Assembly (NCBI GenBank): GCA_008632985.1 | Contig: QPGO01000109.1 | Location: forward strand, 124,001 to 188,000 | Length of the DNA: 64,000 nt | DNA from: Psammoneis japonica | Lineage: Eukaryota | Direction of reading: 5' to 3' | In this document: in pieces, positions 2,040 through 57,911 of the stretch | Position numbering within the stretch: the stretch's first letter is position 1 | Layout: every line of letters begins with the position of its first letter | Translations under genes and position numbers: made by a program | The notes under the pieces: generated by a model | The model's input: the letters and a program-made list of their open reading frames with translations, nothing else | What the model was told of the DNA's origin: nothing | Database searches by the model: none

Positions 2040-2400
2040 AGCAAGACTGACTTTGATGCTGGCAAGAGACACTGTCAGAGCGACTGTGCTCCCTGTCACT
2101 GGTGCGAGTGCTCTCACCGCGAGAGCAACTGCACTCCCTGTCACTGGTGCGAGTGCTCTCACCGCGGTGAGAGACACTGCAAGAACAACTGTGCTCCCTC
2201 TCACTGGAGCCATTGCTCTCACCGCGGCAAGAGACACTGTGATGGTGGCAAGAGCAAGAGCGACTGGGAGAGCAACTGCGACAGTGGCAAGAGCAAGAGT
2301 GATTGCGGCAGCAATGGGAATCACTGTGGTCACTCTCACTGTCACTGGAGCTTGGACTGTGGCAAGAGTGGCTGCAGCCTCCACTCCCATGTCCTCTTGA
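2040..2400. repeat. Degenerate tandem repeat (units of about 39-51 bp); minus frame resembles a decayed Arg/Ser-rich low-complexity coding repeat
   Basis: Recurring ctccctgtcactggtgcgagtgctctcaccgcg and gcaagagcaagag units; minus translation RGESTRTSDRE repeated among SCSC/SHS runs. Confidence 0.7.
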
Positions 2401-3748
2401 GTGACCACAGCCACTGCTGCTGTGACGTCGATTGAGGGAACAACCACGATGCCTTGTTTGTTCTTGGTGACAGGAATCATCAGACTGCCTCTGACCATGT
2501 GCCACTGGACACCCAGAGCCAAGCTTTTTGAGGAAGAAAAGAAAAGGCCAGTGAGTGGAGTCAAAGAAATCAAAAAGAAATGAAAGACATGAAAGATGCA
2601 CGTGAGTGCAGCAAAGCAATGATTTGATGCTCATGACAAACTGCCCATTTGAAGCATGCAGTGATTGCATGCATTCTTTCTTTGCACCCAAAGCATTCTT
2701 CTTCTCCTGCTTTTTCAAATCAACTTTTGTTCACTCCTTCACCCTGAATTCTTCAAACACAAAGAAGCAGACCATTCAAATGATCCCAGGAAGGTGGGCT
2801 TTTGAGAAAACAAAAAGCTCAAAGACTTGCAATCCCACTGCAAAATTGCAAAAGTGGCAGCAGCAAGAACAGCAAGTCTGGCAACACCCAAAATGGAAAG
2901 ACTGCAAAACAGAACAGCCCAGGCATGAGAGCAAAGGAAACTTGGAGGATGTTGAAGCTGCAAATCTTGTTGCAAAGTCCTTGTCACACTTGGGCAAGAG
3001 TGGTTTTTGGGATTCAGTGTGCTGTGGTGAGAAAAATGAAGAGAGTCAAAGCAAGTTGATGAAGACAAGCAGCTGGAAGCCAATGCCTGCAAAGGCCACG
3101 GGGCAAGCACCAGCAGCACCAGCAAGAAGAAGCTGAGTGGCGAGGCAGGGCACCAGAAGAAAGCAAAAAAAGTGGGTTGATCATGCAGCATGAAAGGAAG
3201 GAGCAAGATTTGAGGCAGGGCTGAGACGGGAGACTCAGAGGTTTAGAAGCCATAAAAAAGAAGCACCTTGTTGTCAAAAAACAGAAGCTGCGGACACAAT
3301 GCACTTAGATTTCAGAGAGAGCGGCAACTGAGGCAAGGGCTGCTGCTGGGCAACTGGCAAGCACCTTGAAGCAGAGCGCTTTGCCAATGTCAAATTCAGC
3401 ACAGAACAGGTTGTCGTCAAAACCCATGTTGACTCACCCCGCTCTCCAGCTCGTGTCCATTCATCATTCCTTGCAAGTTGAGAATGGATGACAAAGTGGC
3501 ATTTCCATGTTGATGGAATGTGTCGCATTCAGAGATGAACGATGCGATGATTCATTTGCACAAGAAAATGTGTCCACAGTAACGACAATGACGCATCTAG
3601 AGAGACATTGCTGGCATCGTCGATTCTACAGTAAGCAGGCCTTGGCAAAATTCCCTGACGCAGGCCGCCAGGCCGCCATTAAGAAACAAAGCGCATGAAC
3701 TCATGATTTCGTGACACAAGGCCCAATCCAACTAGAAATTACAACTGT

Positions 3749-5820
3749 TTAGATGCAACACTCGGCAGCATGCTCTTCTTGGAATCGTAGACAGTCAAAG
3801 GTTGCCATGTCTGTCAATAAATCAACGTTTGCTTTGAATTCGACCTAACGGAGGCAACGACAACATAACAATGATGAGATTCAAGCGCCACAAAACAAAG
3901 CAAAATGGCAAGCGAGTCACTCACATGAATGCATGTAGTCTCCATACTTAACAGGGAAGAATTCACCATTCGGTCGGGCTTTGGCAACATAGTGTCACCA
4001 CCACATATGCGACAAAATGGTTGTGGATTCTCAGTCTTGGGACATGCACAGTAAGCTCCCACAGACTGCCACGCGGTACAGTCTGTAGCAAAACGAGGAT
4101 CCGAATCCATCAACCCGTAGGCCATTCCGCTTATATCCTCACAAGAGACACTGGGAAGAATCTCCTTACTCATGTTTTGAGCAGGAAGCAACGAGACGTT
4201 ACCATCTTCCTGGGGACAAATCCGACAAAAGCTACCGCCCGAGGACGGACAGTTGCAGACGGTTTCTCCTTGATAACCCGCGGTCAAACAATCGCTCTTG
4301 GTGGAATCCGTCTGTGCAATGCGGTCTTGAGCAACACCACAAGTCACATTTTCTCCATCCTCTGAAACTTTTACAAGTACGTCTTGAAAGTCAATGTCCA
4401 CAAGTGAGCCATCGGGGCAGAGTGTGTCACAGAAATTCTGACACCCACAAAAGAATGCATGTTTCTGGATTTCTTCCTTGCATTGCGTCGAATTGTATGC
4501 AAAACCTGAATTCTCCAAATCACCACAGGTAACAAATTCCTCTTGAAAAGGTATTTCAAGTTCCGGCTTTGTAACGGGTGTCCCGTCAGGACAAACGGTG
4601 CAGTTGCCTCGAGAAGTGTTACCAATTGGAGGAGATGGAACAGGTGCGGTTGTTTCTTGTCGATCGTCGATTGGTGAAACGATATCAAACCGGGTCTCGC
4701 TGTTTGAACTGAATGGAAATACTCGTCTGATGCGATTTTCTGCAATGCTCGTGTCGCTTCCCATGTAAATTTCGTAAAAGCCTCCTGGGAGACCATCCCC
4801 TCCAAGATCGACAAGAGAAAAGACACAGCAACTCCCACTCACTTGAGTGGTAGATTCCACTCGAAAGCTCGGGATCAAGTTGTCTGTTCCGATTGGCAAG
4901 AAAGAATAGGTTCCCTGAGGTACATTCAGAACTGTGTCTTGTTGACAATCCCGTCGTGGGCCGCACGCCAAGGTCCATCCCGTTTCACCAGGATTTTCCA
5001 CCAACTCAATTACCAAGGACACTGTGGACAAAATGGTGGGCGCTGGAGTAGAGGTAGGAGACGCCGTTTCTTCGGGTGGAGGGTCGCTATTGCTGTCGCC
5101 ACCGCCCAACAAAACACCCAGCGTCGTTCCTACAGCACCAGCCACCACGAGGAAAGCCAAAACCAAAACAGGAGTACGTCTGAACCACGGTTTTTCTTTG
5201 ACGGCTTCGGCTTGCACAGCCAGTGGTCGATCGCCATCCTCGTCGCTGGTATGCGAGTCTGTGACCGATTCGGGATCGTCTTCGTCGGCCAAATAGGCTT
5301 GTACTGCAGGAGAAGTATCGGTTGTACTTGTTGCAGACGTCACGGCACTACTCCTCGTGGTTTCCTGATCAGCACAAGAGGCCCCAATTCCCGCTACAGA
5401 AACAGCGCCAGGCAGAGTAGATTCGACTCCCTGGACCCTGGATGACGACGTGTTGTCCACTCCTGATGTTGTTTCATGATTATATGGAGAGATTTCCTCG
5501 TTATTAGTGTCAGCGTTCAGCGAGTGTGTCGTTGCAGTAGCAGCAGTGGCGGCGTAGGGTGGCGTTGCCTCTGCATTACTATATTTATTATTTGCCTTGG
5601 CCTGGGCATCCAAATACTCCTGAGAATAAGCTGCCCGTGCTACATCGGCCATATCAGTAGTTCGGCCTTCATCACCAACATTGGACCGACGAGAGGTTAT
5701 GGAAGCCGCTGTAGTTGCTGATGCTGTCTCGCCGCGGCCTCCCTCTCGTGTCGGCGCTTGAAGAAATGTCATTTCCTCCTCACCATCGTCCTTGGGGCGC
5801 CCCGAGCGTTTACTCTCCAT
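3749..5820 (-). CDS. Single-pass membrane protein with Cys-rich extracellular repeats; exons 5820-3925 and 3844-3749
   Basis: Long ORF with normal Tyr content, TM helix VLVLAFLVVAGAVGTTLGVLL, CxxCP...TC repeats; GTGAGT donor at 3924 after TCIH, TAG acceptor, last exon VEFKAN...AECCI-stop matches the paralog. Confidence 0.85.
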
Positions 5821-6317
5821 GGTCGACAAACCCAAATCAATGATATTTTGGCTCACTTTCAACTTGAACTTCCCTCCACGCAGCGACCTGACGTCACTAT
5901 TGAAGAAATTTCCTCCGTGCAGAGATGCACTGCTTTTTCATTGCTACGTCATCAATATGTTATTAATACATTAAGGTACATATACTCTTTACTTCATATT
6001 GATGTAACAGGTATGTTCTTCAGTTCTGAATAATTATGAAGCGATATATATCAGGTAGAGCTCTACTACCGGTATGGTAGTACTGTAGAATAATACTGCC
6101 AGAAGCACTAAGCGTTTTCATGTGTATCTCTCGTGCATGCTGCAGAAACATTCCGCGCGGAACGTTCGCCGCCGTTGGCACATGATAAAACGGCCGCAGA
6201 CCTTACGAAGAAATTGCCATTTGCCATGAACAATTCCAGAGAAAGAGGCAACAAAAAGAAGGAACAAGAGGAAACACTCAAGGGCTTATTACAGACACAG
6301 TTCATTCGTCTTTTACA

Positions 6318-8761
6318 ATGAAAATCAGATACCACGACAAGGTCTGCGTTTGCAATCTCGGTGCAGAATGCAAGGGGATTGCATCCGCTTTCTACTTACT
6401 TGAAGATGCTCGTGGTGGTCATACCAAGATACCTCCGCACGTGTACAATGCCAAAACGCCTCAAGACATTTGCAGCAATCAGTGGAGGGAGCTATTGATT
6501 GAATATGTCAACTCGGAGGACTTTGGCCCCAAGACTCGGTTCGACGAAAACCATGATGCTTCTTCTGTTTACATTGCCAATCATCACTTTCACCCGCAAG
6601 TGGTGGAGGCTGCAGCCGTCAAGACAAGCCCGGGAGCGACCTTCAAGATGCCCATGACGATTCCCATGAACGAAGCGGAACGCTTGGGGTTGAAAGACAT
6701 ACATGTGATGTGTGACAAAGACGGTCAGCCGACGGATCGTGTCTTTGTGCTTCCAAACTACAACTTTGCCAACGTCAAGCAGGACATCAAGAGAACTTCT
6801 CACCTGAATGTTGTCGCCAAGAATTACCAGTTGGTGGAGCTCCAAGATTCAGAGGAAAAGAGTGCAAAAGCTGGGAGCCGTGTCCGTGCCGCTGTGCCCG
6901 GCGCCGTTATGGTTTCGGGAACTGCAGCCGCAGCTGCGGCTGCCTCGGCGACGACGGACCGTGGTACGGAGAATGGTATGCGTTATCAAGAAAAAGACGT
7001 TCTTAGACACGGTCAATTCAGTTCTTTCCACAAGACAGAAAGCACCCAAAGCATCTCCTCTTTTTCAAAGTCAAAGGACGACGGCGACAAGAAAAAGATT
7101 GACATGGAACAATTCGAGTCTTCTAGCCCTGAAGGCGACGAAGGATTGGTCCATGCAGCCATGGTGACGGACGGAGCGAGGAGCAGGGTCAAGAACAAAG
7201 ACGTAGAAAAGGGAGAGCTGGGTGAGAAGAAAGAATTGGCTACCGCTCATGCCAAAGAAGTCAAGCCATGGTATAAACGCAGAAAGGTTGTTGCGGGACT
7301 CATTCTATCGGCATGCGTCATTATTGGCGTTGCGGTAGGCGTCTCTGTGGGCCTGTCAAACAAGGATAATAGTAATCAAGAACCCTCCGCCACCATATCC
7401 ATGTCGGACATAACTCTGGTGATGCTCGTGGATTACCAGCCGGAGCAGGTAGGATGGAAACTGGAGTGCGACAACCAAGTCATCCATGATATTCCCACCG
7501 GAACGTATGGATTACTAGGATATGGGGTATCTGGCGTTGGATCAAGGCGTCGGCTTCATCGTCACGGAGGTAGGTTGATTGACACGTTTCGCGTGGAATA
7601 CACTACTCAGGTTCCATACAACAGCACTTGTGTCTTCAACATAACCGATTCCGGCGGGGACGGTTTGATTGGTGGCTTTTATGAAATCTACTACGGAAAC
7701 GACGTTGCAGACCCCAAAAGCCTCATGAAACAAGTTTCTTTTGAGGGTTACTACGATATCTCTCAGTTTCAAGCCATTTCACCAAAGGCAGAGGATGGTT
7801 CCTCCTCACCACCACAGAAATCGCTCACGTCGCCGTTTGCAAAACATGTGGATGATAAAGAGCATTGCAGCATTTGTCCTGGCGGTGAGCCCGTCCCGGA
7901 CAAGTCGGAGGAGCTCGATGGCAACCGAACGTGCGGCCAAGTGGAAGACTTGCTTGCTGACTTGTTTTCGAACTGCCCACTCAATCATGATTTAATCCAT
8001 GAATGCGGCTGTAACAATCAGTGTGACAAACTCTGTCGTGACGGTTCGACTGTCCCGCGAGACTCTGAGGACAACTTGGTCAAGGTCGAGAATGGTTATC
8101 GTGTTACGTGTAAAATGGCTCAAGATAAGGTAGAGCGGACGATTTCAAGACAGAGTGACTGTTTGAGGAGCAGCTATATTGGAGAGACGTTTTGTGGTTG
8201 TCCCAAGGAGGTGAGCTTATGAATTTGCAAACAATTCTTCGCAGGTGTTTGTGTCCTCGTTGAGCTTACGTACGCTTCTTCTCGTGTTGAATTGAAATTT
8301 GCAGAGGGAGTTTTGTCACGTTTGTCCGGACAATGAATCGCCAACGGACCTGACGCGTGAACTCGTTCCGGGGGTCACGTGTGAAGGTCTCAGTGGCATT
8401 GGCTACTCTTTGCCAAGATCAGATGAACGGTATGCGCCCATTTGCCCAGCTTGTCAGGGATTAGGAGCTTATTGCGGATGTCCCCAAGAGCAGAGTACAG
8501 AATCATACTGCCGTCTTTGTGGAGATAGTCTCCTGCCTGAGCTTGGTCGAATTGTCTTCTTCCCCTTGCTGAACATAACTACGACATGTATCCATGTAAG
8601 TTATTATGGTCAGTTGTGTTGTGTACTGAGGCAGTTTCTTGTCGTGTCTCAACTGCTTCTTTTCTTCTTGTTAGGTTGAATTCCAAGCAAACGTAAACTC
8701 TACGGAAGTTCCGGGGTGTGCCGCATTTCAAGAAGATTTTGGTGCTCACTGCTGTGCGTAG
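6318..8761 (+). CDS. Paralogous single-pass membrane protein with Cys-rich repeats; exons 6318-8210, 8305-8595, 8675-8761 (start uncertain)
   Basis: KPWYKRRK then a TM helix; shares FRVE-TTQV, D-GGDGL-GGFYEIY-G-D and GET-C-CP with the 3749-5820 gene; phase-0 GT-AG introns 8211-8304 and 8596-8674; ends VEFQAN...AHCCA-TAG. Confidence 0.85.
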
Positions 8762-9451
8762 AAATGCACGTTTCAAACCATGGGCAATTGAACGTTGATG
8801 GGGTTACTTTGTGTTTGATTATGTTTTGTTGATGTCACATTTGCAGTTTTTGTAGTTGCACCGGAAATAATTTTTTAGAGGAAATTGACACTGCATGACA
8901 TCGATTGTGGCATTGTTGTTGTGTCAACAAGATAATCGGCCACTACGTCACCAAACTGATGATGATTCATTTGTTTTATTGCTTCAAAGAACAAGGAGGG
9001 AGGGACAACAATCCTTTTGCCACTTTAAGCTGGCACCACCAGATCCGGACGGTGACGTCGTGTTCAAATTTCAGTGAAGGAATGGGGTGTGCCTCCAATC
9101 TATGGCATGTCTTCATGAGGGGGGCACTGCATTCCCTCAGAACTGTCATTGCAAATGCAAGCAAATGAGGTTCCTTGGCCAAAACAGACTCCATTGCTGT
9201 GAAGGCAAGATTGAGATCCATGCCGCAGTGGATGGCAAGCCATGAGGCTGCAGTCAAGACAAGTGCACCCACCATTGACACCAACAACAAATGCCTGTAG
9301 ATGGCCACCTGTCACCCCACAAAAACACTGCAAAGTTCACATCCACTTGGCTGCTTAAAGCAGAGAGGGGGGGGGGGGGGGGTTGGTGCATTCAGGAAAA
9401 CATTGTGGCATGAGTCTTTCTTCTGTGAGCATAGCAGAACAAACAAGGGGA

Positions 9452-9848
9452 GACGCGTTCCAGCCCTAGGTGGGAGCTCGTAGTACTGACGTGTGACACA
9501 AATAATTTTTATCATCCGTCGTATGTTTCGTACGTAGCTTTCTACGTGTGATATTAAAAAAAAAATTGTCCAGACTCGCTGTTTTGCGAAGCCCCAGACG
9601 TTTTATATAACGATTTTATAGAAACAATAATGCGCCAGTTACATTCTTCAATGTCTGAAGAATGTAACTGGCTAAGTAAAAAATGATGTACTTCAATCAT
9701 GGGCGAGTTTGTGCGTTCGCAAAATTGCCTCATTTTCTGTTGGCGATCATTGACATTTTAATTACCGTATGATTTTACTACAGAGCTCGCACGTAGAAGT
9801 CTACGGGCCCAATGTCACACGGATTCCCACCTACGTCTGGAACGCGTC
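9452..9848. mobile_element. Young MITE of the GAC-TIR family, 23-bp imperfect TIRs, 4-bp TSD GGGA
   Basis: ggga|GACGCGTTCCAGCCCTAGGTGGG ... CCCACCTACGTCTGGAACGCGTC|ggga; interior rich in TpA and CpG. Confidence 0.85.
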
Positions 9849-12149
9849 GGGAGCAACAACAACCAAGTGGAACATTCTTCTGGGGACACTGCTTTGTTTC
9901 CTGACTCTGTTGTCCTCTTTTGTTTGAAGCTGAGCATGAGTGCAGGACACTGATCCACCTTCCTTTGGCGCATCAATGCTGGTGCTTGCAAATGAGTGTT
10001 TGACTCATTGTCTTCTGGTTCCATCTGCCCAAGTGACTTGGAAAAAGCTGGTTGAAGAACAGCTCCACATTGATGGGCAGTGGCACATGCAAATGACAAC
10101 AGCCCTGCTTGCTTGGGCTCACATGTGCAAATTGCAATGGCCCTGCTCACTTGGGCCCAGGCTGGTTTGCCTGCACAAAAAATGCCAGCAAGGATGGTGT
10201 CGTCAGATCTTGTTGACAGGGAAGCTGCCCATGCTTGGCATCCAAGGTGCTGCCTGACAATGAGCAGCACCACAAAAAAACAAAGTGCCAGCTGGAAGTG
10301 GCATCTGCCAAAGACTCTGGAAATGTGGCATCAACTGAGAAACCCCACAAACAAGCCAACAATGTTGTCAAAAACAGAAGATGAGAAAAACCAAAATGGT
10401 GCCTGCGAAGTCTCTCAACAGAAATTTCACAATGGGCTGCCACACGGCAAATGCTGCATGGCCCAAAAGAGAAGCAACTAATTGTCCGGGGGATGTGATA
10501 GTCACACACAAGGAAATTTGCCTTGCTTCCACCCAGGCATGATGCTGCAAAACTTTGGAGTGCTGGGAGAAGACAACCCTGTCTGTCAAAATCCAAGAAC
10601 TTGTTCGGCGCCGCTCACGCTGCAACGCCAGTGCAAGCTCCTCACCTCCAAAAGTCAGCGGCCCCACTGCACTCCTGTTTTTTTCCTTTTGGTCAGCAGT
10701 GAACTGCACATCTGGCTGCAGTGGCTCTTCTCTTCCCCTGCCCTGCACCAAATGGAACATCGTCATTGGCGCCATTGCTGGCGGCAAACCAAGCATGCTC
10801 TGCAATCTTGTCTGTGAGCCACAAGCAACAAATCCTTTCTCTGCAGCACAAGACACCTTTGCTTGCTTGTTGCAGGTTAGCACATGCACAAGGGCAGACA
10901 AAACACACACATGAAAGCTTTGCAATGCCCAGATTTTGCTGCATCAGCCCACATGCATTCTCAGCACTTTGAGTGTGTGTCACTCCTCTGTTTTTGCCAT
11001 GGCACCACCAAAGAACAGGGAAAAAACTGCTGCCCAGGCAAAGAACAGGGTTCTCTCTGATGAGAGCTGCATGAGCTGGAGTGGGCCAAAAAAAAGATGT
11101 GAGCAAATGTTTGGGAAAGATCCGCCCCTTTTTAACTGCAACATGAGCAAAGGACAACACAGCATCCTTGCTGCTTCAACCCAGATGCTTGAGGACATTG
11201 AACATGTTTGCTCCCCCCCTTGTGTTAAAGAGTGTTGGACCAACAGGTTCACTTGCTTGCACAAAACATCAACAAATGCATGGTCAGATCTTGAAAAGGA
11301 AATTGCTGTTGCTTGGTTTTCAAGGTGAAGAGACAAAGGACAGGAGCATTGTGGAAGAGAGAAGCAAAAGAGCAACTGGAAATGGTGTCTGCTGAAAATT
11401 TTGCAAGTGTGCTTCAACAGCAGTTAAAAACCCTTGCAAACAAACCAGCAATGTTGACAACATCAGCGCTCACAAGCAGGGAGAAGGAAGGGAGGCAAAA
11501 AGAACAACTCTCAAAAAGAAAAGGTGAGAAAACACCAAAACAGCACCTGCAAAGAAGTCTCCAACAAAACACTTCACAAAGAGCCATGCCTCAAAGACAG
11601 TGGCACAGCTTGGGAGCAGAGCACCAGCCCAGAGTCATTTTTGCAACTTGTCTGAGCCTGGCTGGTGCCCAAAGCATGCTGCTGTTCTTGAAATCTCTCA
11701 GCCCCAGCAACCAAGCAACAAGGCTGCTCCTCCAGCTTTTTTGTCCCCCTTGCAGAGCCAAGCACTGCTGCATCATTGTTTTTTGGCCAGCAGCAGGAGG
11801 TTTGGGGAGCCGTGCAGGAACAACATGGGTGGATGCTCCTCCTCCGCCATGCCGCACAGCTCTTTCCACACTCTGAAATGGGAGCAAAGCAGACATTGGC
11901 CAGCAGGCTCAGGTTGCAGTGCAGCAATGTTGCCAAGTTTGGCAAGACAGTGTGCGCGCCAGACTTGCAATGCTGACAACTGGCTCTGGCAGGCACAAAC
12001 GTGTCATGCGCAGCTGTGTTGTGCCATGGAGTCTGCTCCTCCTCCTGTGTGCAAGGTGCAAGTGACTGAGGCTCTTGCTGAGTGGGCTTGTGGCAGTTGC
12101 TTCATCAGAGGTGGCAATGTGGTGGTCTCCACTTTCCTTTGTAAAATGT

Positions 12150-14480
12150 TTAATGTGCGCCGTCAAAATTGTTGACAAGCAGAATTTAAAAAATGCCAGC
12201 AAAAGTGCTCCACAAAATGAAGCTGTTTCTTGCATTTCATCTGATGTCTCGTCAACTTTTCTTGCACAAGCTTCAATCAAATGCATGCAATGTTGAACTT
12301 GATTGGGGTCAAAATCCATTTTTTGTGATGCATGGTTTGGTTTCCTTTTGATCACAAACAATTTGAACTTGGTTTTCACTTTGTCCTCCTTGCTCACGTG
12401 GTGGTTGTGTCTTTGCACGTGTGCAGTCTGTGGCACTTCACACAAGCACATGACCCACCTTCATTTTTCTTCATGTTTCCCAGATTTGTGCAGCCCATTG
12501 GTCTGCGGCATTTTCAGCACATGTTTTTTACATGTGCAACTTTCTGCACACTTCATGACAGTGCACCCTCTCCCCAAAGTTTGAAAAACAAGAGCACGAC
12601 TGTTGTGATTCATGCGGATCCTGTGTGTGGTCGACAGCGGCTCAATGCATGGTGAAACCTGCCGTCCTTCTGTTTGGTCAAGATGGGGTTTTATTTGGGG
12701 GGCACAGCTTGAATTTTGTGATCGAGAATGTGCTGTCACGAATCTGCCGTGCATCCAGAATGCTGAGCTCTGGCATGTTGTTGTGTGTTGTGTGCACCCA
12801 CATCACAAACTTGCTTTTCTGCAGCATTGGTGCAATCGTGCATGTCAGAGTTTTGCATCCAAAATCATCACAAGTCACCACAAATTGCACTGTTCAAACA
12901 AGGCATGCACAAAATGAGTTTCATTGGTTTTTGACACATTCGCCAACAACACATCCGTCTTCTCCAATTTCTACATCCAGATCCAGAAAGACTGCAGGCG
13001 GTGCTTGTTCCTGCAGCTCTCAGAATCACATGTGTGAAAAGTTCTTTGCCATGTGTGACACTCTTCAAAAAAGGCATGAACAAAAAGAGCTTCATTTGTT
13101 TTTGATGTGTTCACTCATGTTGCACCCGTCTTCTCCAATTTCCACATCCAGACCCAGAAAGACTGCTGAGGCAGAGAGTGAGGAGGCAACCCATTGGAGG
13201 TTGCCTGAGTTTTTGGGCTCATTTTTGAGGATGGATCGTCCAGATGAGGTCTGTTTGCGCATTTTTTTGGAAAAAACCTGGATTTCTCGCACTGGATGCG
13301 CTCGCCAACAAAACATTTTCAGCGATGGGTCGGACTTTGTCCCTTCAAAAGACACCACAGAATGTGTCAGCAATGGTCGTGACCATGCGCGATCTTTAGC
13401 ATGACGACTGTGGATGTGTCTGCAGCCAGTCAAACGCCAATTGTCGGCATTTCCTGGAAAGTTGTGGCATGTCTCCCATGAGCAGTGTGATTTTGGTGAA
13501 AAATGGCAGTTCATTGAATGTGACAACTGCACGAATCCTAAGATTGGCATTTGAAGGTTGAAATGTGCAGTTCATGTGTGGGTCCAATGGCCCTGATGGG
13601 GGCTGGACACACTCACAAGTGTTTGGGGGTGCTCAGAGGCATCGCAAAACAACACGGTCGAAGCACAAGAAAATTGCAAAATCACGAGCTGATTAAAAAA
13701 ATGCCTCATCTGGACAATCCATCCTCAAAGGCTTCCCAAGTCTCTCCGCTGTTTGTGGCCCATGCTCTGAACATGTCATTGATGAACCGTCCACAGCATG
13801 GGAGGTGTGGGGCGAACTCAGTCATTGCCGTGTGACTTTGTTGTTCATGCAGCACCTTGCACACTGTGGTGCAAGTGCAGACTGTGCTTGTTCCCACAGC
13901 TGTTCCAGCAAGTGCATTGTGCGGCACTTGCAATGTTTTTTTGCTTGCTCACATGCTTTCTTTCTGTGTTTTCTTTGAGTTGCAGGGGTGGAGCTGGGTG
14001 CTCGACGTCTTGCACCGCACACCAAAGCCCAGCCTGCTCCGAAATCAGTGGTGCCGGATGCACCGATGCACCGGCAAGTTTTGGCTCATGTCAGTGCATC
14101 TACACTGCACTCTCACAATGTGCTCTGCACTTTTTGGCAATGAACAAGGTGGGTCAGAGGAGCAACAGCACTTCTGCTGCAAACTTGCCTGCTCCAGAAT
14201 CAGCGGCATTGGATGCACTGGCGCGCCCATGTTGCCATTCCTGTGGGCAGTGTTGGCACATCTGTGCAATGCTCTCACAATGTGTTTTGCTCTTTTTGGC
14301 AATGAATGAGGTGGAACAGAGCAGCGGTGCTTCAAACAACAAAACAGCAGCTCCTGCTGCAAACACGCCTGTTCCAGAATCAGTGGTGCCAGATGCGCTG
14401 GTGAGCCCATGTTGCCGTTCCTGTTGGCGGTGTTGGCTCATCCACATTGCACCCTCACAATGCATTCTGCACTTTTTTGG
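12150..14480. repeat. Dispersed repeat with internal tandem duplications; inverted homolog at ~44150-44249 and ~46347-47680
   Basis: aaaattgttgacaagcaga...aaaaaatgccagcaaaagtgctc at ~12165 is the reverse complement of ~47595-47640; blocks ~12830-13230 and ~13750-14380 also match in reverse. Confidence 0.8.
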
Positions 14481-15898
14481 CAATGAACAAGGTGGCTGCC
14501 AGCAGCAGCACTTAAAGAAAGCGAGCTGCAACTGCTGCTGCAGACTCCAGGGTGCAGTCTCCATCGGCGTCATTCAACTTAAATGCAAACAACAAAGTAG
14601 AAAGTTCATGGCACAGCGCAAATGATTTTAATTTGCAGGTTTTGCAGGGACAGAGGGTGGGCACTCTCATGGGGAAAACCTGCCCCTGTTTCACAGTGAA
14701 ACAATTTTCCTCATGGGGAGGGGGGGTCTGATCCCACAGTGTGAAAATGTCAATCTGTCATGGTTGGCATGTCATTGCCAGCCACACAACTGATGAGGTT
14801 TGAAACCATGAAAAAATTGTCTGCAAAAGGAACAAAAATCACAGTGAAAAGATGTGTGATGATCACTGTGTTGCACACTCTGATGTTCCACTCCAAAGTT
14901 GGGCTGCTGCACTGTGTTCTGGCACTTGTGTCCGGGGGCAGCAACGCGAGGAGGAAGGACTCTTTTCACACTGCGGGCAGTTGGACTGCAGCAGCCACAA
15001 TCCAACACAACTGTTTGAGGTGCACCCACGAGTGTTGGAACATCAGTTTCAAAGTTGTTGTTGTGGAGGATGTCATGTCACTCCGCACACGCGGGTTGGT
15101 CAAATCCCTTTTTTTTGTGTTTTTGCAGAACACGTCTAAAACAAGCCACAATTGTGTTCGAAGGTGAGGCATTTCGATGAAAATTGCCAAGTTGAAAAGA
15201 ACCAATTTGCTCGTTTTGCACAGTGACAAAAAACAAAAAACAACAACACCACGACACATCGTTCAGTCTGGGTGCCAGAACCCCAGGACTGACAATCCCT
15301 GGTTTTTGAAAACACGGGTTCGAACCCCGAAATGAAAATGCGGGATTGAGTCCCTGGTTTTTATTCGCGCAGCTCGCAGTGCTTTTTCTGCATGATTTTG
15401 CTGTTGCTTGCCACCCGAAGTGACTTTGCTTCCCATCAGTTCTCACGGAAAATCTGTCACTTGATCCACTTTGTGGCCACTGCTGCTTGCAATGTTGAAC
15501 CAAGCATTTGACATTTTATGCAGTGTTGCTTTCCTGTTGTTCAATGAGACTTTTGATGTGATTTGCATTGCGTCTCTTCGCATCGGTTGATGGTGGTGTC
15601 CAATCAGCCTTTTGTTTGTTCAAAAACAGCTGAGTGTCTTCCCTGCCAAGCCCATGTGACTGTGCATCATGACAGTCAAGAAAACAGGTTTTCTTGCCGC
15701 TTGTGCCTTGGTTGGTGGGGAAGTGCAATGGCTTTCCACACAGGTTGCAACTCGAGCACGAGTCTGTCCCGCACCAAACACAGAGCCTTGGATGCTTGTG
15801 GCTGGCGAACACTGCATCAAAGTGACAACGTAAGTGCGGTGCACTGCGGCACAGACGAGATTCATTTCCACCCTGCTGAGCTCGTTGGCATTGTTCTA

Positions 15899-16751
15899 GA
15901 CGCGCTCCAGGTCCAGGTGGGACCTCGTGCTGCTGAACTGCAACATCGATGGTTTTTTGAATCGCGTCGTATGTTGCAGCACGCAGATTTCTGCGTGATT
16001 TTTGTGACATTTTGTGTCATTTCATGGCACACTTGTTGAGCGATCCATCCAACAACTTTTGACATTTTTTGTTGCAGTGCGATTCTACAATGTCTTAAGA
16101 ATCGCGCAGGGCAGGTGCATTTGCAAAAACGTCGAGTGGCACGAGGCACAATTGCACCACAAACTTGGCACCACAAACTTGGCCATTTATTTTGCAGCAT
16201 GCATGCAGACAAAAGGTTGTTTTTGTCACCCCTTTGTGACATTTAAAGGCTGTGACACGTCGCCGTGATGCATTGGCTCTTGTTGGCAGCTGCACATTGC
16301 ACTCCTCCCCATGTGTCACGCGTCCATGCGGCTCTTTACTGACGTGCACTGACGCTGCACGGTTTTGGCAGAACAGTGTGGGTGCGCACGAAGGAACGTG
16401 CAGAACTGCACAGAGTTTTGCGCGCTCGACAGTGATCAACGTTGCTGCAGACAACTCCCACTCAGGGTTTCGAACCCCTGGCCTCCTGCCCAATGGTTGC
16501 GATGAACCACTCCACCATGAATTCACAACGCAGCATGCATGCAGACAAAAGGTCATTTTTGTCACGCCCTTTGTGACATTTAAAGGCTGCAACACATGCC
16601 ATGATGCATTGACTCTTGTCAGCAGCTGTGTGTGCAATTTGATGTTGAAGACAAGTGTGTCCATTGATTGAATTCTCGCACTGCAGAGCTCGCACGTAGA
16701 GTTCTACGGGCCCAATGTCAAACGGAGTCCCACCTGGGGCTGGAGCACGTC
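15899..16751. mobile_element. GAC-TIR family MITE inserted in the piggyBac-like transposase; TSD TCTA/TCCA
   Basis: tcta|gacgcgctccaggtccaggtggg ... cccacctggggctggagcacgtc|tcca; interior homologous to ~46010-46346; removing it rejoins the transposase (VTLEQCQR). Confidence 0.85.
16193..16636 (-). mobile_element. TRIM-like miniature LTR element with an internal tRNA-like segment; TSD ATTT
   Basis: TG...CA ends; ~108-bp direct repeats (16193-16301, 16529-16636); purine tract ggggaggag on minus before the 3' repeat; A/B-box-like motifs at ~16454-16524; the homologous site at ~46225-46250 lacks the insertion. Confidence 0.8.
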
Positions 16752-19564
16752 TCCAATGTCACAAAATTGCCAGCCGTCATCGTTTGTCCCAAAGCTGCTC
16801 TTCGTTGATGGTTTTGTTGAGTTGAGGCCCGCACTGCATTGTCACCTGGGTGCAGATGTGCTGCAGGGTGACGCTGCAGCATCTGTCCTGAGAGACGGTC
16901 TCAGAATGTCCAGAAATCCATTGGACCATCGACTTTCCATGATGAGTCTAACCCACCCTCTGCCATTTCCAAATGAACATCACACGCAATGACGACAGCC
17001 ATGGCCTTGCCGTGGTTCATCACAGAATGCCAATGCTTCCAAGAACGACAGAACACATTTGCATTTTTGATGCAATGGTCAAATGAATCAACTGTGAGCA
17101 AGATGAGAGACACAGATCACGGGCTTCATTCGTCTCAATTGCCCAGTGTCGCTTGCTCTTGTTTCTGCCTCTTTCTTGATGCCCCACACATTTGCTGCAC
17201 TCGTTGAGGGCATTCACAGCAGCAATGTTGCACGACGAAGTTGATTGAAATGAGCAAAGCACATGTTGGCAGCCCCCAGCATTGCGCGTGGGTGCCACAG
17301 TCTTGACAGCAACAATCGGATGATCAAACCCAGCAGCTTTTGATCTTGCATTGGATGGTGTTTGTTTTTTCTGGAAGTGCTTCCCTGGGACACCTGCAGG
17401 CAGCCGATCCCTCCGACGTGCAATTGCAGCTGAATGGCCATTTTCCCCAATCCAGTCTGAACTGCAGTCAGCGTCAAAGCAGTTGTCACATGTTGCGCGC
17501 GGCTTTCCTGGGAACATCTTCTTGGGTCCGGCGTCGTCGCCCACACTGCCGTCGTAACCCACCATTTCCCCCACTTGTTCCAAGATCACACGAATTTCCG
17601 TCGGGCCCATGGCGCCCCATCCATCTGTCCGTGGGTGCAATTTGTGTCGTCGAACACAAGCCCGAGGTCGCATCCGGCGCACATCCAACACGATCACTGT
17701 CAGACCGCCCTTGGTGATGCCGGGCTTTCCAACTGTGCGACTGGCAATCCCGCTGCCAGCTTCACCACAACCCGCGTGGCCCCAGGTGGTTTCGTCACCA
17801 CATTGATCCATTTCTGCATGCAGTGTTGTCGCGTTGACATTGTGCACTGTTGTCGAGCAAAGCATGTCATGCTTGCATGCCGGGTTGCACCCGGCTTCAC
17901 CTCTTCCAGGGGATGTCATGTTGTTGCATGGCTTCAGCACTCGCTTTGTTTGAAGCCAACGTGAGCAGCGAATCGACGAGGACACACTCGAGTCACAGTC
18001 GGATCCATCAGCCATCCACCTGCGGTGAATGGCTCCGTCACTGCCACCCTTGATGCCGTCTCAGACAATCACTGCATCAAATCTGACAAGCTCCTGGATG
18101 TTCACAAGTTTGAAATCATGTCCATGCAATGAGCACAACTTCAACTCTGCCATGGCGCACAAGTTGGAATGCATCCCCACTTTGCTGTAGAACGACTTTC
18201 TGGGGTCTGAGTTGACACCGGACCGTGCAGTGTCACACATTGGGAGAATCAATTGATGGAAAAACAAAGCATCCCGATTTTTCATCCGCTCAGCATTCGT
18301 TCCCAACAATCGCAATGCATTTGCATCCAAAGATCCTTTCCTTGGTGCTGGAAACAGGTTGTCCTTTGATGCGCCCGATCTGTCAGGCAGTTGCAGCATC
18401 AAATCCTTCTCGGCAACATCGTCACTGGACATTGACCCATCCATTGCAAATTCTCTTCCCTTCTGAATTCTCCGGCACTGGCACGGCCCCAGTTGGCAAG
18501 CCATGTTGAGTGCACTTCTTGCCCCCTCTTGCTTCAAGCTGAGAGCGGAAAGCATGTCTGCTCCACCCTCCTGGATTGTCCACATCAGCAAATGGTGGCT
18601 CCCCCTTGTCTGCTTTCATCTCGGGTGGCTGCCACCCTTCAGGAGCACCAGGAATGTTCAACTGCACTGACGGGTCACGCTCACCAAGGTGCAGCAGCAA
18701 GGCAGTGTGGTCGTTGTCAGCCACAGTCTGTTCATCACTGTCTTGGTCCACAACACGCGATCTCAACCTTTCCAAATGGGCATCAGCATGAGCTCCATCA
18801 ATGTCATTGACATTCTCATGCTCTTCATCGCTGTCACCACCATCTCCCGTCTCTGTCTCATCCGCAAGGACGTGCTCGGGGTCCACCAGTTGGTCCTCCG
18901 CAGCTGCGGGACCAAAGTCTGTGGCCGTCATGTGCAGTGGCAGCCCTGGTTGTTGTGTCGCCATTCCACCAAACGCTTCATTGGCACTTGCAGAAGCGGC
19001 CATCTTCGTCGCAACGTTGATGCTCCGATTCACTGAGCGTGTTGCTTTGACGACAATGGCGGTGGCTGCGGTTGTTTTTTTTTTTGCAGTCATCGGCTTT
19101 TCAACGTAGGCTCAGGTAACATTTCTACGGTGATGCGTCACTGCAAAAAACCCGGGATTCAGTCCCCGAACACCCCGGTTTCAAGCCCACTCTAATAACG
19201 ACAACAAAATGCCAATGTAACTCCAACCGTTAGACATGTTATTTGAAGGGTAATCAGTCATTTACATCCTGACTAAAACCTCTGAGTAATAATCAATGGT
19301 TATTGGATATTTCCGTTCAACGGCTAACGGCTAGTGGAAAACCCGGGACTGAATCCGGGTTTTTCGGGGCGCCCAGACTAAACGATAGATAACTCGATGA
19401 TTGATGATGCAGCAACAATAAGCTGTTGTTTGTTGTTGTCGTTGCGCTTCACACATTTGGCGGCAGATGACGAGAGGTAGAAGACTTATTGGCAAAAGTT
19501 GTGGATGCGACTATAGCACTATACGCGTTGGAGCCGCAGCGTATAGCAACGAGTCCTCTCCGAC

Positions 19565-23047: not shown

Positions 23048-23261
23048 CTAGAGCGTCGAGTCCTACTTGTAGCGGAAAAAATAGAACAGCGTCTTTTTCA
23101 ATCATTATAGCTAGGACGAAGCTGTTTATACTTCTACTTGACGACTGCGTAGTATTCTACTCGAGGGAACGCTAGCTATCTCCACATCACACAAAGCTGC
23201 TCCAAGCGCTTCTCACGGTCAAGGTCAAGTTTTCCGCCGGTTTTCACCATTTATATTTTCC

Positions 23262-25750: not shown

Positions 25751-26274
25751 TGTTCAGATTATTGCCTCCTCCCCTTTCTCCTCCATTCTATGACGATTTA
25801 ACTTGACAAAAGTGTTGAACAATTGAATCTAAAATGTCATCGTGGCGATTGTCTTGCTCTTGGTGGTTTTCTTGGTTTCCCTCTGACGTACTTGAACGCA
25901 TCTCTGATAATGTGTTTTGTTGTTTGTTCTGCATGTCTCGTATGATCTCGTTTGTCTCGACAGCTCTCTATGGAACGAGATAATCCAAGTGCTGGTCCAG
26001 TATAGCAAACAAGCACCATGTGTGGCTGGTTCAACACATGCTTCCGATACTGCTGTATCATTCAAAATCTCGACGCTTATTGCGACCTTGAGGTGAAAAG
26101 CACTGCGTCTCCGTGCATCACCTCTTGATTGTCCGATTTTTGTTGACTGGAACGTTGATATAACAGTAAGCTGCAAAATCAGTACAAGAAGGAAAAGAGC
26201 TTGGGTATAACCCATTATTGTCTGATGCGATTGAGGGAGAAGACACGACGAAAAACTAAAACAACGTTGTATAG

Positions 26275-43400: not shown

Positions 43401-44059
43401 TTTGTCATTGTCACTTGTGACCACAAAACAACTCACTTTTCGTTTTGCTGTGCACCACACAATGCTTTTGCATCACACCACTTTGTCAAATGGGACCAAG
43501 AGGAGTGCCATTGGGGCTGTGGAGTCACTTGGTGTGGAGCCAGGTCAATCTCTTTGGCAAGAGACTGACTGTGGCAATTCAAACTCTCAGTTTGCAGCCA
43601 ATGTGCAAGTTGGACGTAACGTCAGGCAGTGTGTTGATCCTGTCAACCCAACGGCATGGCTGCACATGCTCATCGACAGCATCAGAGTGCACAACATGGT
43701 GATCAGACCAACTTTCTTGCAACGAATTTTTTAATCTGTCAGAGTTAAAAATTCAATGGCTTCAAACCTCATCAGCTGTGTGTGTGGTGACAATTTGTCA
43801 ACTGTGAAGACAAGCTTCATTGCTGTGGAGCCCACTGCTGTCCCATGAGATGCCACTCTTCACTGTGAAACAGCCAACCATTTTCCCTGTGGGAGTGCCC
43901 ACACTCCATTCCCACAAAACCTGCAATTTAAAATCATTTGAATTGTGCACATTCCATTTTGTTGTTTGTGTTTGACCCAAATGATGCAGACGGAGACAAC
44001 ACCATGATGCCTGAGGCTTGCCATCCAGAGACACAAGCCCAGCGGAGATGCTTCTGACA

Positions 44060-44148
44060 GCACGCCACGTGATTTTGCTGCGGAGCTTGCACGCAGAAGT
44101 CTACGGGCCCAATGTCACACGGATTCCAACCTGCGTCTGGAACACATC
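44060..44148. mobile_element. Right end of another GAC-TIR family copy (left end not located)
   Basis: Aligns with ~9765-9848; differences are mostly TA->TG/CA and CG->TG/CA. Confidence 0.75.
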
Positions 44149-44249
44149 TGGAGCGGGCATGTTTGCAGCAAGAGCTGCTGTTTTGGTGTTTGAAGTGCTG
44201 TTGCTCTGTTCCACCTCATTCATTGCCAAAAAGAGTGAAGCACATTGTG

Positions 44250-46346
44250 GATGCGTTCCAGGTCTGGGTGGGACCTCGTGCTGCAGGTGCGCGCCCTGTG
44301 CACTTGTGGAGCCTGACGAGGAGGGTTCGGCCCCACCAAGCCCGACGAGAAGGGTCCAAGCAACAAGGTGGAGACCGACGAGGCGGGTTGCACAATGGCG
44401 AGAATGACCCCAGCGAGGAGGGCTTTGGCCCGATGAGAAGGCCACACGACAAGCTGTGGGTCGTTCTCGCCATTGTGCAACCCAACGAGAAGGTCATAAC
44501 CGAGGCACGTTGAGTGCACACGGGAGCACATGTGGGGTCTCCCGCTGTGAGGATTTTGTGTGTGCAACTCGACAGTCAACTGCTTGGGGAGCGCTTTCAT
44601 GTGCAAGACTGAAGTGCCAAAGTGTTGCGGTTTGCTTGTTGGTGACGGTTTTTGGTGCCGACTGGCAGTTGCGCAATCATTCAAAATTGTCAACGCCATG
44701 TGTGACATTTAATTCAAACTTGTGTGTCACATTCATCTCAGCACCTGAAGCCGTCATTGCGATCGAAATTCAAAAACGTTGGTGGGATTGATTCAAATTG
44801 ACCATGCAGAATTGTGCACATTGGCGCAGTTTAATGGCAGAATCCTTGCAGTCTACATGGAGAGAGCAACGGTTCTACTCACAACCCTTCTGCACGATTT
44901 TTACACTGACGCACATTTGTGCACATTTTGTGCTGAGAAATTTTGTTCGACTCCGAATGGTGCGCGGTCGAGTTGATGGCTCACAATTTTTCCGAGCGGC
45001 CGATCGACAACCACCGCTCCCTCCGACAATGGCGCTTTTGGCCGATTTGACCGGTGCGACACCGCCTCCCGACCCCTGCCTTGCTTGATGGTGTCATGCG
45101 CCATTGGGTCGTGCTGTGTGAGTGAGCCACGGCTCTAGAATGGGTCAGAATGACTCAAAATGTGGTGAGTTCTGATTCTCACGGAATCAAGTCTCGTTTT
45201 CCCCCGTTCTCGTTCGCAATGGCGCTCACCTTGAACCTCCTTGTCCCGCATCTTGATGTGTGGGACTCGAAGATGGGGATGTCGAAGTCCGTGGGTCTGC
45301 ACCGTTGCCGTCACCGTTTTTGGCTCTGTCACCGTTCCACCATGGCGCGCTGCTTCTGTCCCGGTCCATGCCATCCTGCCATGGTGCTGCCTCCGTTCTC
45401 CAAGCTGCTGCCACGACTTTTGTGGACTGGACGAGTCACTCGATCCCAAGCGCCGACTTTCTGCCATTGCTCACGCCGATGTGCCGCCTGCTTTTGTCGT
45501 CCTGCTCCGTGGAACCAGCAGACTCTCTTTCATCCGTCATTCCTCCCGCCGTTGACGATCCAGGCACCCCAAGTTTTGACCCTGCTGGTGAGTTTCTATT
45601 GGTTGTTTGCTCGTTGTTGCATTGCATTTGTAGAAAAGTGTGTTCTCACCTCCTTGTGTTGTTCCATGTCACCGCAGATGTGGTCATTTTGCAGGCGCTG
45701 GTGCCGTGCTTCTTTGTGTGAGTTTTTGTGCATGCCAATGTCTTCTTGCTTTGTTCTTTTTGTTGAAGATGTGGTGCTCACTCAAACAGATCTTTCCTCT
45801 CTTTTGCGCCCTTGCAATGTTGTTGGATTGCTCTCCTTGCATCTCTCTCTGGCACTTGCATCATTGTCGGTCTCTTCGCTTGTGCTTCGCTCGCGTCATC
45901 TCTTCTCCATGCTCATTTCCCCTGATGTTTGTACGCACGTAATTTCTGCATAAATGCCTCATTCACAGAGTGCCAAAATGCTGCCAAATTACACACTCGA
46001 GCAGTGGGATTCCTGCTGAACTGTGACATCGACAGTTTTTTGAATCGCGTCGCATGTCGCGCACGTACATTTCTACGTGATTTTGGCGAAATTTTGCATC
46101 ATTTTATGGTGCAATTGTCAGGTGATCCATTCAACAACTTTTGACATTTTTTTCTTCTACGCCATTCTCGAGTGTCTCAAGAATGAACTTCGAGTGCAAA
46201 CAGAAACACATGTGCTGCAAACTTGGCCGTTCATTTTATGTCAAAGACAAATGTGTCCATTGACCAGAGTGCAAAGTGCAGAGCTCGCACGCAGAATTCT
46301 GCGGGGCAAATGTCACAAAAAGTCCCACCTGGGACTGGAACCCGTC
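44250..46346. mobile_element. 2.1-kb non-autonomous GAC-TIR family element; TSD TGTG
   Basis: tgtg|gatgcgttccaggtctgggtggg ... cccacctgggactggaacccgtc|tgtg; splits a repeat whose intact form is at ~14265-14300 (reverse). Confidence 0.8.
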
Positions 46347-47782
46347 TGTGAGAGCATTGCATGGATGAACCAACACAACCCATGGGAACGGCAACATGGA
46401 CACACCAGTGCGTCCGATGCCGCCAATTCTGGAGCAGGCGAGTTTTCAGCAGAAGTGCTGTTGCTCCTCTGATGCACCTTGTTCATTGTCAAAAAGTGTG
46501 GAGCACATTGTGAGAGCACAGTGCAGATGCACTGACATGAACCGCAGCACACACTTGCCCCTGCATTGGTGCATCCAGTGCCGCTGATTCTGGAGCAACG
46601 TGGACGTCGGTGCACGGTGCAAGACATTGAGAACCCAGCTGCATCCCTGCAACTCAAAGAAAACACAGAAAGAAATCATGTGAGCACTTGAGTGCCACAT
46701 GATGCACTCACTGGAACAGCTGTGGGAACAAGCACTGCCTGCATGTGCACCACACTGTGCAAGGCACCACGCAAATGACAAAGTCACACGGCAATGATTG
46801 AGTTCACCCCACACCTCCCATGCTGTGGACGGTTCATCAATGACATGTTCAGAGCATGGACCACAAACAGTGGACCACAAACAGCAGAGAGACTTGGGAA
46901 GTCTTTAAAAATGAGCCCAACAACTCAGGCAACCTCCAATGGGTTGCCTCCCCACTCTCCAGCTCTGCAGTCTTTCTGGATCTGGACACAGAAATTGGAG
47001 AAGACAGATGCAATGCAAGTGAACACATCAAAAACAAATGAAGCTCTTTTTGTGCATGCCTTTTTTGAAGAGTGTCATGTGTGGCAAAGAACTTTTCATG
47101 CATGTGACTCTGAGAGCTGCAGGAACAAGCACCGCCTGCAGTCTTTCTGGATCTAGATGCAAAAATTGGAGAAGACGGATGTGTTGCCAGCGAATGCATC
47201 AAAAACCAATGAACCTCTTTTTGCACATGCCTTGTTTAAACAGTGCAATTTGTGCCAACTTGTGATGATTCTGGATGCAAAACTCAGACATGCGCGATTG
47301 TGCCAATGCTGCAGAAAAGTGAGTTTGTGACGTGCATGCACATGACACACAACAACACTCAAGCAGCTCAGCGTTAATTGTGGTAAACTGCGCAGAAAAT
47401 CGGCCTCTGCGTGATGAAAAGTGGATCACCTGGAGCTGGAACAGGCCTGGGATCAAAAGGAAACCAAACCATGCATCACAAAAAACAGATTTTGACCCCA
47501 ATTAAATTTGACATTGCACACATTTGTTTGAAGCTTGTGCAAGCAAAGTTAATGAGACATCAGATGAAATGCAAAAACCAGCTTCATTTTGCAGAGCACT
47601 TTTGCTGGCATTTTTTGAACTCTGCTTGTCAACAATTTTGAGAATGCACACTAAAAATTTTACAAAGGAATGTGGAAGCCACTGTGTTGCCGCCTCTCTG
47701 ATGAGCCTCCCAGGGCAAACACCCAGAATTTTGCTGGAAGCAGTCATGTCAAGGTGGTGTGTGGCGGGTTTCATTTGCTCGT

Positions 47783-57143: not shown

Positions 57144-57911
57144 GATGTGCTCCAGCTCTGGGTGGGACCTTGCGCTGTGGCTGGAGTTCATTTTTTGAAA
57201 TTTGGAGTGGATTTCTGCTCAAGTGGTGCAACACGTCACCAAGTTGAAGCTCATTTCATTGGAAGGAAAACAAAAAGCACGAGAATTGTCACGTGCCCGG
57301 TGTCTCAACGATGATGCTCACAGCTTCTTGAAAATCTTTGGCTTTTTGACGTGTTCCAGCCGCATGTGAACCAAATCGTGCACAAAAACAACATTTGCGT
57401 GATTTTTGCGTGGTCCCTTGACGATCAAACTTTCGCCACCAAAAGCATGGAATTTGCAAATGCAAATGTTTTTCAACACTGACAAGACTCGTGTGAGTGT
57501 TGCAATGTCATTGTCATTGTGCCAGGGGCCCCACGGGTGTGTTTTACATTGCGTTAAAAGATTTGTAACACAACGGATGATTTTCGGCGAAAATGTTGCT
57601 GTCATTTTGATGTTGCCTAAATGTGTCTTTCTACGATCATGCTTGGCAGGTTTTCTACCTGCAAAGAAATCTCGGTGTAAATTCACTGATGCACAATGTC
57701 TCCATTGAGTCCACTGAGGAAGTCCACAACACATGTCCCATGAGGATTTGAGTGACCCTCAAAAAACTGTTTAAGTGTTCATGCTCTAGAAGCCCACAAA
57801 AGTCAATCCGTCCAAGCATTTGTTGTCAAAATGCTTCACACACTATAAGATGCACAAATCATGTTCAAAATGGACTGTCGTTTTGTGCGTCACCTGGGAC
57901 TGGAACACGTC
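57144..57911. mobile_element. Possible divergent GAC-TIR family copy
   Basis: gatgtgctccagctctgggtggg at 57144 and cacctgggactggaacacgtc ending 57911, but flanks (aaca/tttt) give no TSD. Confidence 0.45.

Follow-up and report, generated by a model that had tools for sequence, protein, structure and literature searches.

A probable recent MITE insertion in DNA of Psammoneis japonica already depleted of TA and CG

Repeat-induced point mutation (RIP) of Neurospora and other ascomycetes is triggered by sequence duplication before meiosis and consists of C-to-T changes at CpA, by which TpA becomes enriched. In animals, ADAR and APOBEC edit retroelements and viruses, and ADAR prefers an A that has a U on its 5' side and a G on its 3' side. 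In tRNA anticodon loops, TadA/ADAT naturally acts on the A that follows the conserved U33, and a YAC preference has been reported for early TadA-derived editors. Recently, a process directed at TpA was described in mutation-accumulation lines of the chlorarachniophyte Bigelowiella natans (Mettrop et al., bioRxiv 10.64898/2026.01.13.699255). According to the available part of that preprint, of the 231 mutations that arose in two integrated regions of viral origin, 230 were A-to-G or T-to-C, all at TpA, with a rate of about 6e-7 per site per generation, a de novo occurrence on the order of 1e-7 to 1e-6, and activity in 11 of 15 vegetatively propagated lines, and the single-copy viral inserts (giant virus, virophage) still contain 3.3% TpA (bioRxiv 10.64898/2026.01.13.699255). 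Its authors propose an ADAT-like adenine deaminase (bioRxiv 10.64898/2026.01.13.699255). A literature search on TpA hypermutation, diatoms and transposable elements gave only this preprint as relevant, and no description of TpA-directed hypermutation of selfish DNA other than this one of 2026, for a chlorarachniophyte, is known so far.

Here we describe a 64-kb stretch of DNA from Psammoneis japonica (hereafter the window) that as a whole has observed/expected ratios (o/e) of 0.18 for TA, 0.57 for CG, 1.66 for TG and 1.58 for CA. Two TA-normal blocks at about 3200-9026 and 19150-26700 have a TA o/e of 0.44-0.78 and long frames, and elsewhere the TA o/e is 0.02-0.15. The gene for a DEAD helicase with five HA domains lies in a TA-normal block; its HA domains (23267-24276) form an internal tandem repeat with a 204-nt period and 64-86% identity. 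A protein-atlas search with the helicase yielded bacterial look-alikes only. TA depletion is confined to mobile-type DNA and genes are spared, with one exception, a copy of a DUF846 gene. Three recognisable protein relics were found in the depleted DNA:

264-1130: DDE_3 transposase relic, identified by Pfam
53735-54508: RVT_2 copia-type reverse transcriptase relic, with 1 Tyr in 258 aa
32122-32793, minus strand: DUF846 copy, a 224-aa open frame with the full domain (E 1e-32), 0 Tyr and 2 TA per kb

These relics mark the depleted DNA as defunct sequence of mobile or duplicated origin. The DUF846 copy looks like a host-type gene copy that was caught by the TA-erasing process, and its frame stays open because TAA and TAG stops were erased as well. 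The Pfam search on 150 frames of at least 110 aa gave no match in the immediate flanks of the element described below.

This element, copy A, lies in depleted DNA close to the end of the first TA-normal block, and its parts and surroundings are as follows:

9452..9848, plus strand: copy A, an unconverted 397-bp MITE with 30 TA, 26 CG and a long hairpin fold
9452..9475, plus strand: left terminal inverted repeat of copy A, 24 nt, with an end motif that recurs at the ends of other copies
9825..9848, minus strand: right terminal inverted repeat of copy A, pairing with 9452-9475
9448..9451: left target-site duplication of copy A, GGGA, 4 bp, a length upheld by copies F, E/C and B
9849..9852: right target-site duplication of copy A, GGGA, identical to the left one
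9634..9672: internal perfect palindrome of copy A, with 17-nt arms and a 5-nt loop; its core ATTCT...AGAAT is also in copies B and C
9027..9451: left flank of copy A, depleted of TA and CG, separating the gene island from the MITE
9849..12087: right flank of copy A, TA o/e 0.05 and CG o/e 0.15, at a single-copy contig depth of about 58-69

Copy A is a MITE by its inverted ends, its fixed-length duplication and its small, non-coding, multi-copy nature. The two ends are complementary at 22 of 24 positions (92%; 9452-9475 against 9825-9848), in line with the ends of about 24 nt in the family, which start with GACGCGTTCCAG. The DNA hairpin has a minimum free energy of -74.4 kcal/mol compared to -42.1 +/- 4.2 for shuffled sequences (z -7.8). 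No stop-to-stop frame of at least 110 aa was found inside the element, and there was no Rfam match in its region. The right junction is real, since a contig covering 9823-10770 spans it with 26 nt of the element and 922 nt of flank at a flank-like depth of 58.5. The left junction is in none of the contigs listed, which stop at 9248. A run of 16 G is located at 9368-9383, 70 bp to the left of copy A, and contigs end at 9248 and 9823.

In composition, copy A differs sharply from its surroundings. With 30 TA (o/e 0.90) and 26 CG (o/e 1.50) in 397 bp the element is indeed as TA- and CG-rich as a sequence-only reading of this DNA had stated, and the depletion of TA that the same reading ascribed to both flanks was found on the left (5 TA, o/e 0.19, and 5 CG in the 450 bp at 9001-9451) as well as on the right (0 TA and 2 CG in the first 450 bp; 6 TA, o/e 0.05, and 18 CG, o/e 0.15, in 2 kb). 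At the rate of the right flank, a length of 397 bp would contain 1.2 TA, giving P(>=30) = 2e-31, and the corresponding probability of at least 26 CG is 2e-14. In the flanks the o/e of TG and CA is 1.6-2.0, that of CG is 0.15-0.4, and the G+C content is about 0.49-0.50 compared to 0.42 in the element.

Other members of the family, and two paralogous repeats that bear on their boundaries, were identified in the window:

44065..44148, plus strand: copy D, a 5'-truncated close sister of copy A, right end only, converted
15899..16751, plus strand: copy B, a MITE of about 387 bp of a second subfamily, with a 466-bp nested insert at 16171-16636 and the duplication TCTA/TCCA
44250..46346, plus strand: copy E/C, second-subfamily ends around about 1.7 kb of other DNA, one insertion with the duplication TGTG
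57348..57911, plus strand: copy F, 564 bp, sharing only the terminal repeats, with the duplication TTTT and 11 TA (o/e 0.24)
57144..57347, plus strand: copy G, the left end of another converted copy, interrupted by copy F
12102..14885, minus strand: repeat R1, a TA-depleted paralogue that gives the empty sites for D and E/C, at a depth of about 680-5300 compared to about 60 for single-copy DNA
43680..47704, plus strand: repeat R2, which carries D and E/C, in opposite orientation to R1

R1 and R2, two copies of one repeat with internal sub-repeats, are 64-87% alike, have a depth about 10-90 times that of single-copy DNA, and contain no recognisable protein domain. The degenerate end motif of the family has 23 matches in the window compared to 8.9 expected, and none of 100 shuffles reached 23. 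Ends of the family other than those of copy A are at 15899 and 16751 (B), 44250 and 46346 (E/C), 44148 (D), 57348 and 57911 (F) and 57144 (G); no right end of copy G was found in the window. Copies F and G have little in common with copy A beyond the ends. All six copies lie in the depleted 78% of the window, which does not amount to a significant preference for such DNA (0.785^6 = 0.23).

The target-site duplication of copy A was described as perfect in the sequence-only reading, which agrees with what we found, and the other copies and an empty site fix its length at 4 bp (GGGA at 9448-9451 and 9849-9852). Perfect duplications flank three of the four complete copies (GGGA for A, TTTT for F, TGTG for E/C), and the fourth, copy B, has TCTA on one side and TCCA on the other, a single T-to-C change at a TA. 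No target consensus emerges from the four duplications GGGA, TTTT, TGTG and TCTA. At the place of E/C in R2, the paralogue R1 runs on without interruption and contains a single TGTG, so that E/C is one insertion of 2097 bp and its duplication is 4 bp long. A duplication of 5 bp (GGGAG, TTTTG) would need asymmetric ends, fails for E/C and B, and is contradicted by the paralogous empty site. That copy D is 5'-truncated can also be seen from R1, since TGGA at the right junction of D agrees with the uninterrupted R1 sequence and a deletion falls at the left side of D. A position of 45990-46012 as a degenerate left end belonging to C alone, with E and C as two elements, was ruled out by the R1 empty site; these are the last 23 bases of the 1.7 kb of unrelated DNA between the ends of E/C (44285-46012, with CTGC on both sides), and they resemble the degenerate left end of the family.

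Copy B is itself interrupted. Contig joints from 16170 to 16637, at depths of 861 and 532, come from relatives of B that lack the insert. The insert (16171-16636), an element of about 450 bp, has an 89% identical sister at 33126-33568, direct repeats of about 95 bp at both ends, a T-arm-like stretch, and an end that begins with GACGTGT, like the MITE end. Despite the T-arm-like stretch, ARAGORN gave no tRNA in the insert and Rfam no match. A read-derived contig joins 9762 to 16708 with 16 other letters between them, combining an A-type interior with a B-type right end, so that a chimeric copy, or one of a third subfamily, is indicated at another place in the genome. There was no transposase element with these MITE ends within the 64-kb window and no matching transposase; the only DDE relic in it (264-1130) is of the DDE_3 type, relatives of which make TA duplications.

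Comparison of the copies gave the direction of change. The right end of copy A recurs, as had been noticed at about 44070-44148, in copy D at 44065-44148, where 84 aligned columns contain 12 differences, 11 transitions and 1 transversion. In 10 of these 12 differences a TA or CG of copy A has become TG or CA (6 at TA, 4 at CG), and one difference is reversed (CA in A, CG in D). Of the six TA of A, D has lost five, one of which was hit on both strands and became CG, and of the eight CG it has lost four. Six of the seven A:T-to-G:C differences fall at a TA of A, four being A-to-G and two T-to-C on the plus strand. In the comparison of 44063-44069 with 9763-9769, D has CG in place of two TA of A, as results when one TA is hit on both strands. 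From such TA-to-CG double hits in D it follows that the process makes new CpG while CpG decay removes others.

Copies B and E/C are related to copy A in another way. They differ from it by transversions at 58/351, 38/220 and 16/114 columns (about 16%), and B differs from E/C by transversions at 18/215 and 16/138 columns. Given this transversion load, B and E/C form a second subfamily and are not mutated versions of A. The older mutated sisters of which the sequence-only reading spoke are thus, strictly, reduced to copy D, the only close sister of A in the window. Nevertheless, homologous sites could be compared across the subfamilies. Among 16 homologous pyrimidine-purine columns with TA in any copy, TA is present in A at 16/16, in B at 3, in C at 2/14 and in D at 1/4, and the copies without TA at these columns have only TG or CA there. 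At none of them do B, C or D have a TA that was lost in A, and the five sites with TA in another copy are all TA in A.

We compared the 210 TA that remain in 49,850 bp of depleted DNA with those of the TA-normal DNA (518 in 13,775 bp), normalised for length and divided by context. Retention was 0.76 for TTAA, about 0.4 for CTAA/TTAG, 0.22 for CTAG, 0.018 for GTAC and 0 for ATAT and ATAC. A multiplicative per-strand model fits all 16 contexts within about twofold, with per-strand retentions of about 0.87 for TAA, about 0.47 for TAG, about 0.13 for TAC and 0.05-0.09 for TAT, from which it follows that the mutated A is favoured before T or C. The context rule of the surviving TA is strand-symmetric, and the target preference is TAT and TAC > TAG >> TAA.

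R1 and R2 differ at 43 places by an adjacent CA-versus-TG double difference in 1546 aligned bases. Such a CA-versus-TG pair is one ancestral TA that was resolved on different strands in the two copies, and the conversion of R1 and that of R2 were separate events that followed insertion. Six adjacent CA-versus-TG pairs were also found among read-derived relatives of the B insert. The converted elements being DNA transposons, the change within the target duplication of B and the double differences between R1 and R2 together argue that conversion takes place at the DNA level and in place, and all three also speak against RNA editing followed by reverse transcription, which cannot explain converted DNA transposons together with changed host sites flanking them. 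The process has two parts. At TpA, A:T-to-G:C transitions fall on one strand or the other and leave TG or CA, and where both strands are hit, CG; the second part is CpG-to-TpG/CpA decay in the same DNA. The chemistry may be the adenine deamination by an ADAT/TadA-like enzyme that the preprint proposes; at a palindromic TA, a modified thymine on the other strand would leave the same trace.

Against this context rule the exposure of each copy can be estimated. At the context-specific retention of the flanks copy A would have 4.1 TA compared to the 30 observed, 11 of which are in contexts with at most 5% retention in depleted DNA. At a dose of 5%, the Poisson-binomial probability of 0 conversions in 30 is 0.019 and that of at most 1 in 31 is 0.088. 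Copy A has therefore received less than about 5% of the cumulative TA-mutation dose of its flanks, and its CpG clock, with a CG o/e of 1.50, also reads about zero. Of the homologous TA, copy B kept 3/18, C 2/14 and D 1/7 compared to 2.5, 1.6 and 0.7 expected at saturation, so these copies are about as converted as their surroundings. An apparently intermediate state of B, C and F (TA o/e 0.17-0.24 compared to 0.04-0.10 in the flanks) disappeared after correction for context and for ancestral TA at homologous sites. The family is not immune, as D and other copies are converted. Of the four copies in the window that could be placed in this way, one is near 0% conversion and three are near saturation, a pattern that is compatible with bursts, four copies being too few to decide. 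The sequence-only reading had suggested conversion that is possibly episodic, for instance at sexual cycles; in B. natans, the sole experimental precedent, sporadic activity was seen in lines propagated vegetatively.

The abundance of the family was estimated from public contigs of four runs of one sample in one study, the only sample found to contain this DNA, aligned to 8800-17000 at a likeness of at least 90%; the depth of such contigs is not a copy number, and they drop rare variants. Summed contig depth over copy A was 32,863 and 134,950 compared to 56-65 on the flanks (500-2000 times), and three of the runs from this sample, although very small, still gave assembled pieces of copy A of 222-247 nt, with 5-6 differences. 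The family is very abundant, and in copies at a likeness of at least 90% most TA and CG must be intact. Among the public sequencing runs listed with the copy A region there were no RNA runs. At a likeness of at least 90%, a threshold below which converted copies there would fall, the right flank shows single-copy depth.

At 9612, 9614, 9702 and 9771 the letter of copy A accounts for 42%, 0%, 28% and 26% of the depth among the rows listed, beside which there are 57 more for the 8.2-kb stretch. Three of these four listed differences are thus family polymorphisms (26-42% of depth), and only that at 9614 is private, which places copy A near the family consensus as far as the listed rows go. At 9771 both A and D have TG, and 74% of the depth has TA in a highly mutable ATAA context; copy A may carry one conversion at this site. 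An empty-site joint was absent among the 15 of 35 joints listed, which by itself is no evidence either way. Given the flank-like depth of the junction, and with no empty-site joint among those listed, the insertion looks fixed in the sequenced strain and not brand new. On the scale of the decay of its flanks copy A looks recent, and its low exposure points to a recent arrival.

In a metagenome scan, the 28-nt internal MITE pattern gave 0 matches and the terminal-repeat pattern gave 12 loci, 11 of which had little match beyond the pattern. The one that extends, L005, matches the left end of copy A over 58 nt at 84%. It is located at 345-724 on the minus strand of a metagenome contig and has the end of a related element with TA intact; on its other side the contig resembles coding DNA. 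About 380 bp away in L005 there may be a short right end, with no convincing second end and no matching duplication.

Taken together, we consider it probable that 9452-9848 is a recent insertion of an abundant, non-autonomous MITE family into DNA that had already been hit by TpA-to-TpG/CpA change and CpG decay. Copy A would have landed in DNA already stripped of TA and of most CG by in-place mutation, and older copies of the family would have been converted together with the surrounding DNA while the process ran. That new insertions at first have a normal composition and undergo conversion afterwards, in place, as the sequence-only reading proposed, is borne out by the unconverted copy A beside the converted copy D and by the target duplication of B. 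It would be different if copy A were old and had escaped the mutator through its position about 425 bp from the gene island, its short length or a missing guide signal. Copy A indeed has a TA-normal block nearby, with its end at about 9026, and appears fixed at flank-like depth, and most TA and CG are kept in a very large number of relatives of at least 90% likeness, so that the family is largely unconverted; the raw divergence of A from the contigs of the small runs (about 2%) is also like that of D outside TA and CG (2/84), the two values (2/84 and 5-6 of 222-247) being statistically indistinguishable unless the shared letters are taken into account. However, copies as short as D (84 bp), C (about 335 bp) and B (about 387 bp without the insert) were converted to flank level, and the DNA between the island and the element (9027-9451) is itself depleted. 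Moreover, the TA clock and the CpG clock are both at about zero in A, and three of the four listed differences are polymorphisms shared within the family, so copy A was not found to be as diverged outside TA and CG as the mutated copies, which the sequence-only reading had named as the sign of an old but protected element. We therefore regard protection as unlikely, though it deserves to be kept in mind.

A second objection concerns the flanks, which could be natively TA-poor and not mutated, in which case the contrast would be one of two compositions with no before and after. It is true that 9027-9451 and 9849-12087 contain no protein relic and that neither has an unmutated relative within the window, but transposase, reverse-transcriptase and DUF846 relics with 0-1 tyrosines lie in equally depleted DNA, the pair of A and D is polarised, R1 and R2 have their 43 CA-versus-TG double differences, and the surviving TA obey a strand-symmetric context rule, all of which makes native poverty in TA very improbable. 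Hardly credible is, finally, an artefact of assembly or polishing in which the assembler put the sequence of a high-copy MITE here or replaced the local one by the family consensus. The extreme abundance of the family, the run of 16 G at 9368-9383 and the contig breaks at 9248 and 9823 could invite such a view, but the element has a perfect 4-bp duplication of the length proven for the family, an independently built contig contains 26 nt of it with 922 nt of flank at single-copy depth, and its letter is private at 9614 and a minority one at three more sites.

With a recent insertion as the preferred explanation, copy A adds to what has been described for TpA-directed hypermutation that conversion acts on DNA in place, that DNA transposons and target duplications are among the victims, and that the process does not act continuously on everything inside a depleted domain, as copy A has under about 5% of the dose of its flanks. 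The family is a practical clock, since it is abundant, short and TA-rich and has proven insertion boundaries. It is possible, if doubtful, that TA is erased in rare all-or-none bouts on whole chromatin domains which an active MITE family outruns. On that reading one might, equally tentatively, expect hundreds or more of intact MITE copies, each insertion being a dated probe. If bouts hold genome-wide, Psammoneis japonica would have a burst-like, RIP-style defence with adenine-directed chemistry, the timing and targeting rules of which would be measurable directly from the MITE family.

In comparison to known systems, copy A resembles MITEs in general in its 397 bp, inverted ends, fixed duplication, hairpin, high copy number, subfamilies and nested insertions. 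As in methylation-driven CpG decay of methylated repeats, CG has changed to TG or CA in the same DNA; unlike CpG decay alone, which does not explain the loss of TA, the process also creates CpG by TA-to-CG double hits, with two cases in D. With ADAR and APOBEC editing it shares a deaminase-type hypermutation of selfish nucleic acids, and unlike ADAR its 3' preference is T and C > G >> A. The likeness to RIP lies in dense, context-specific transitions that inactivate mobile or duplicated DNA in place and in converted old copies beside unconverted new ones, but the polarity is opposite, TA being erased (o/e 0.05) and G+C gained. As far as the available part of the B. natans preprint goes, both systems have A-to-G/T-to-C changes at TpA that give TpG or CpA depending on the strand, DNA depleted of TpA and enriched in CpA and TpG, and a confinement to foreign or mobile DNA, and the activity in B. 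natans is sporadic between lines (bioRxiv 10.64898/2026.01.13.699255). Unlike B. natans, where the available text reports direct measurement, the process in P. japonica is read from sequence in another lineage, has transposon-derived targets, is near completion with a TA o/e of about 0.05, shows a 3'-neighbour preference (TAY > TAG >> TAA) of a kind that the available text does not describe, and is accompanied by strong CpG loss.
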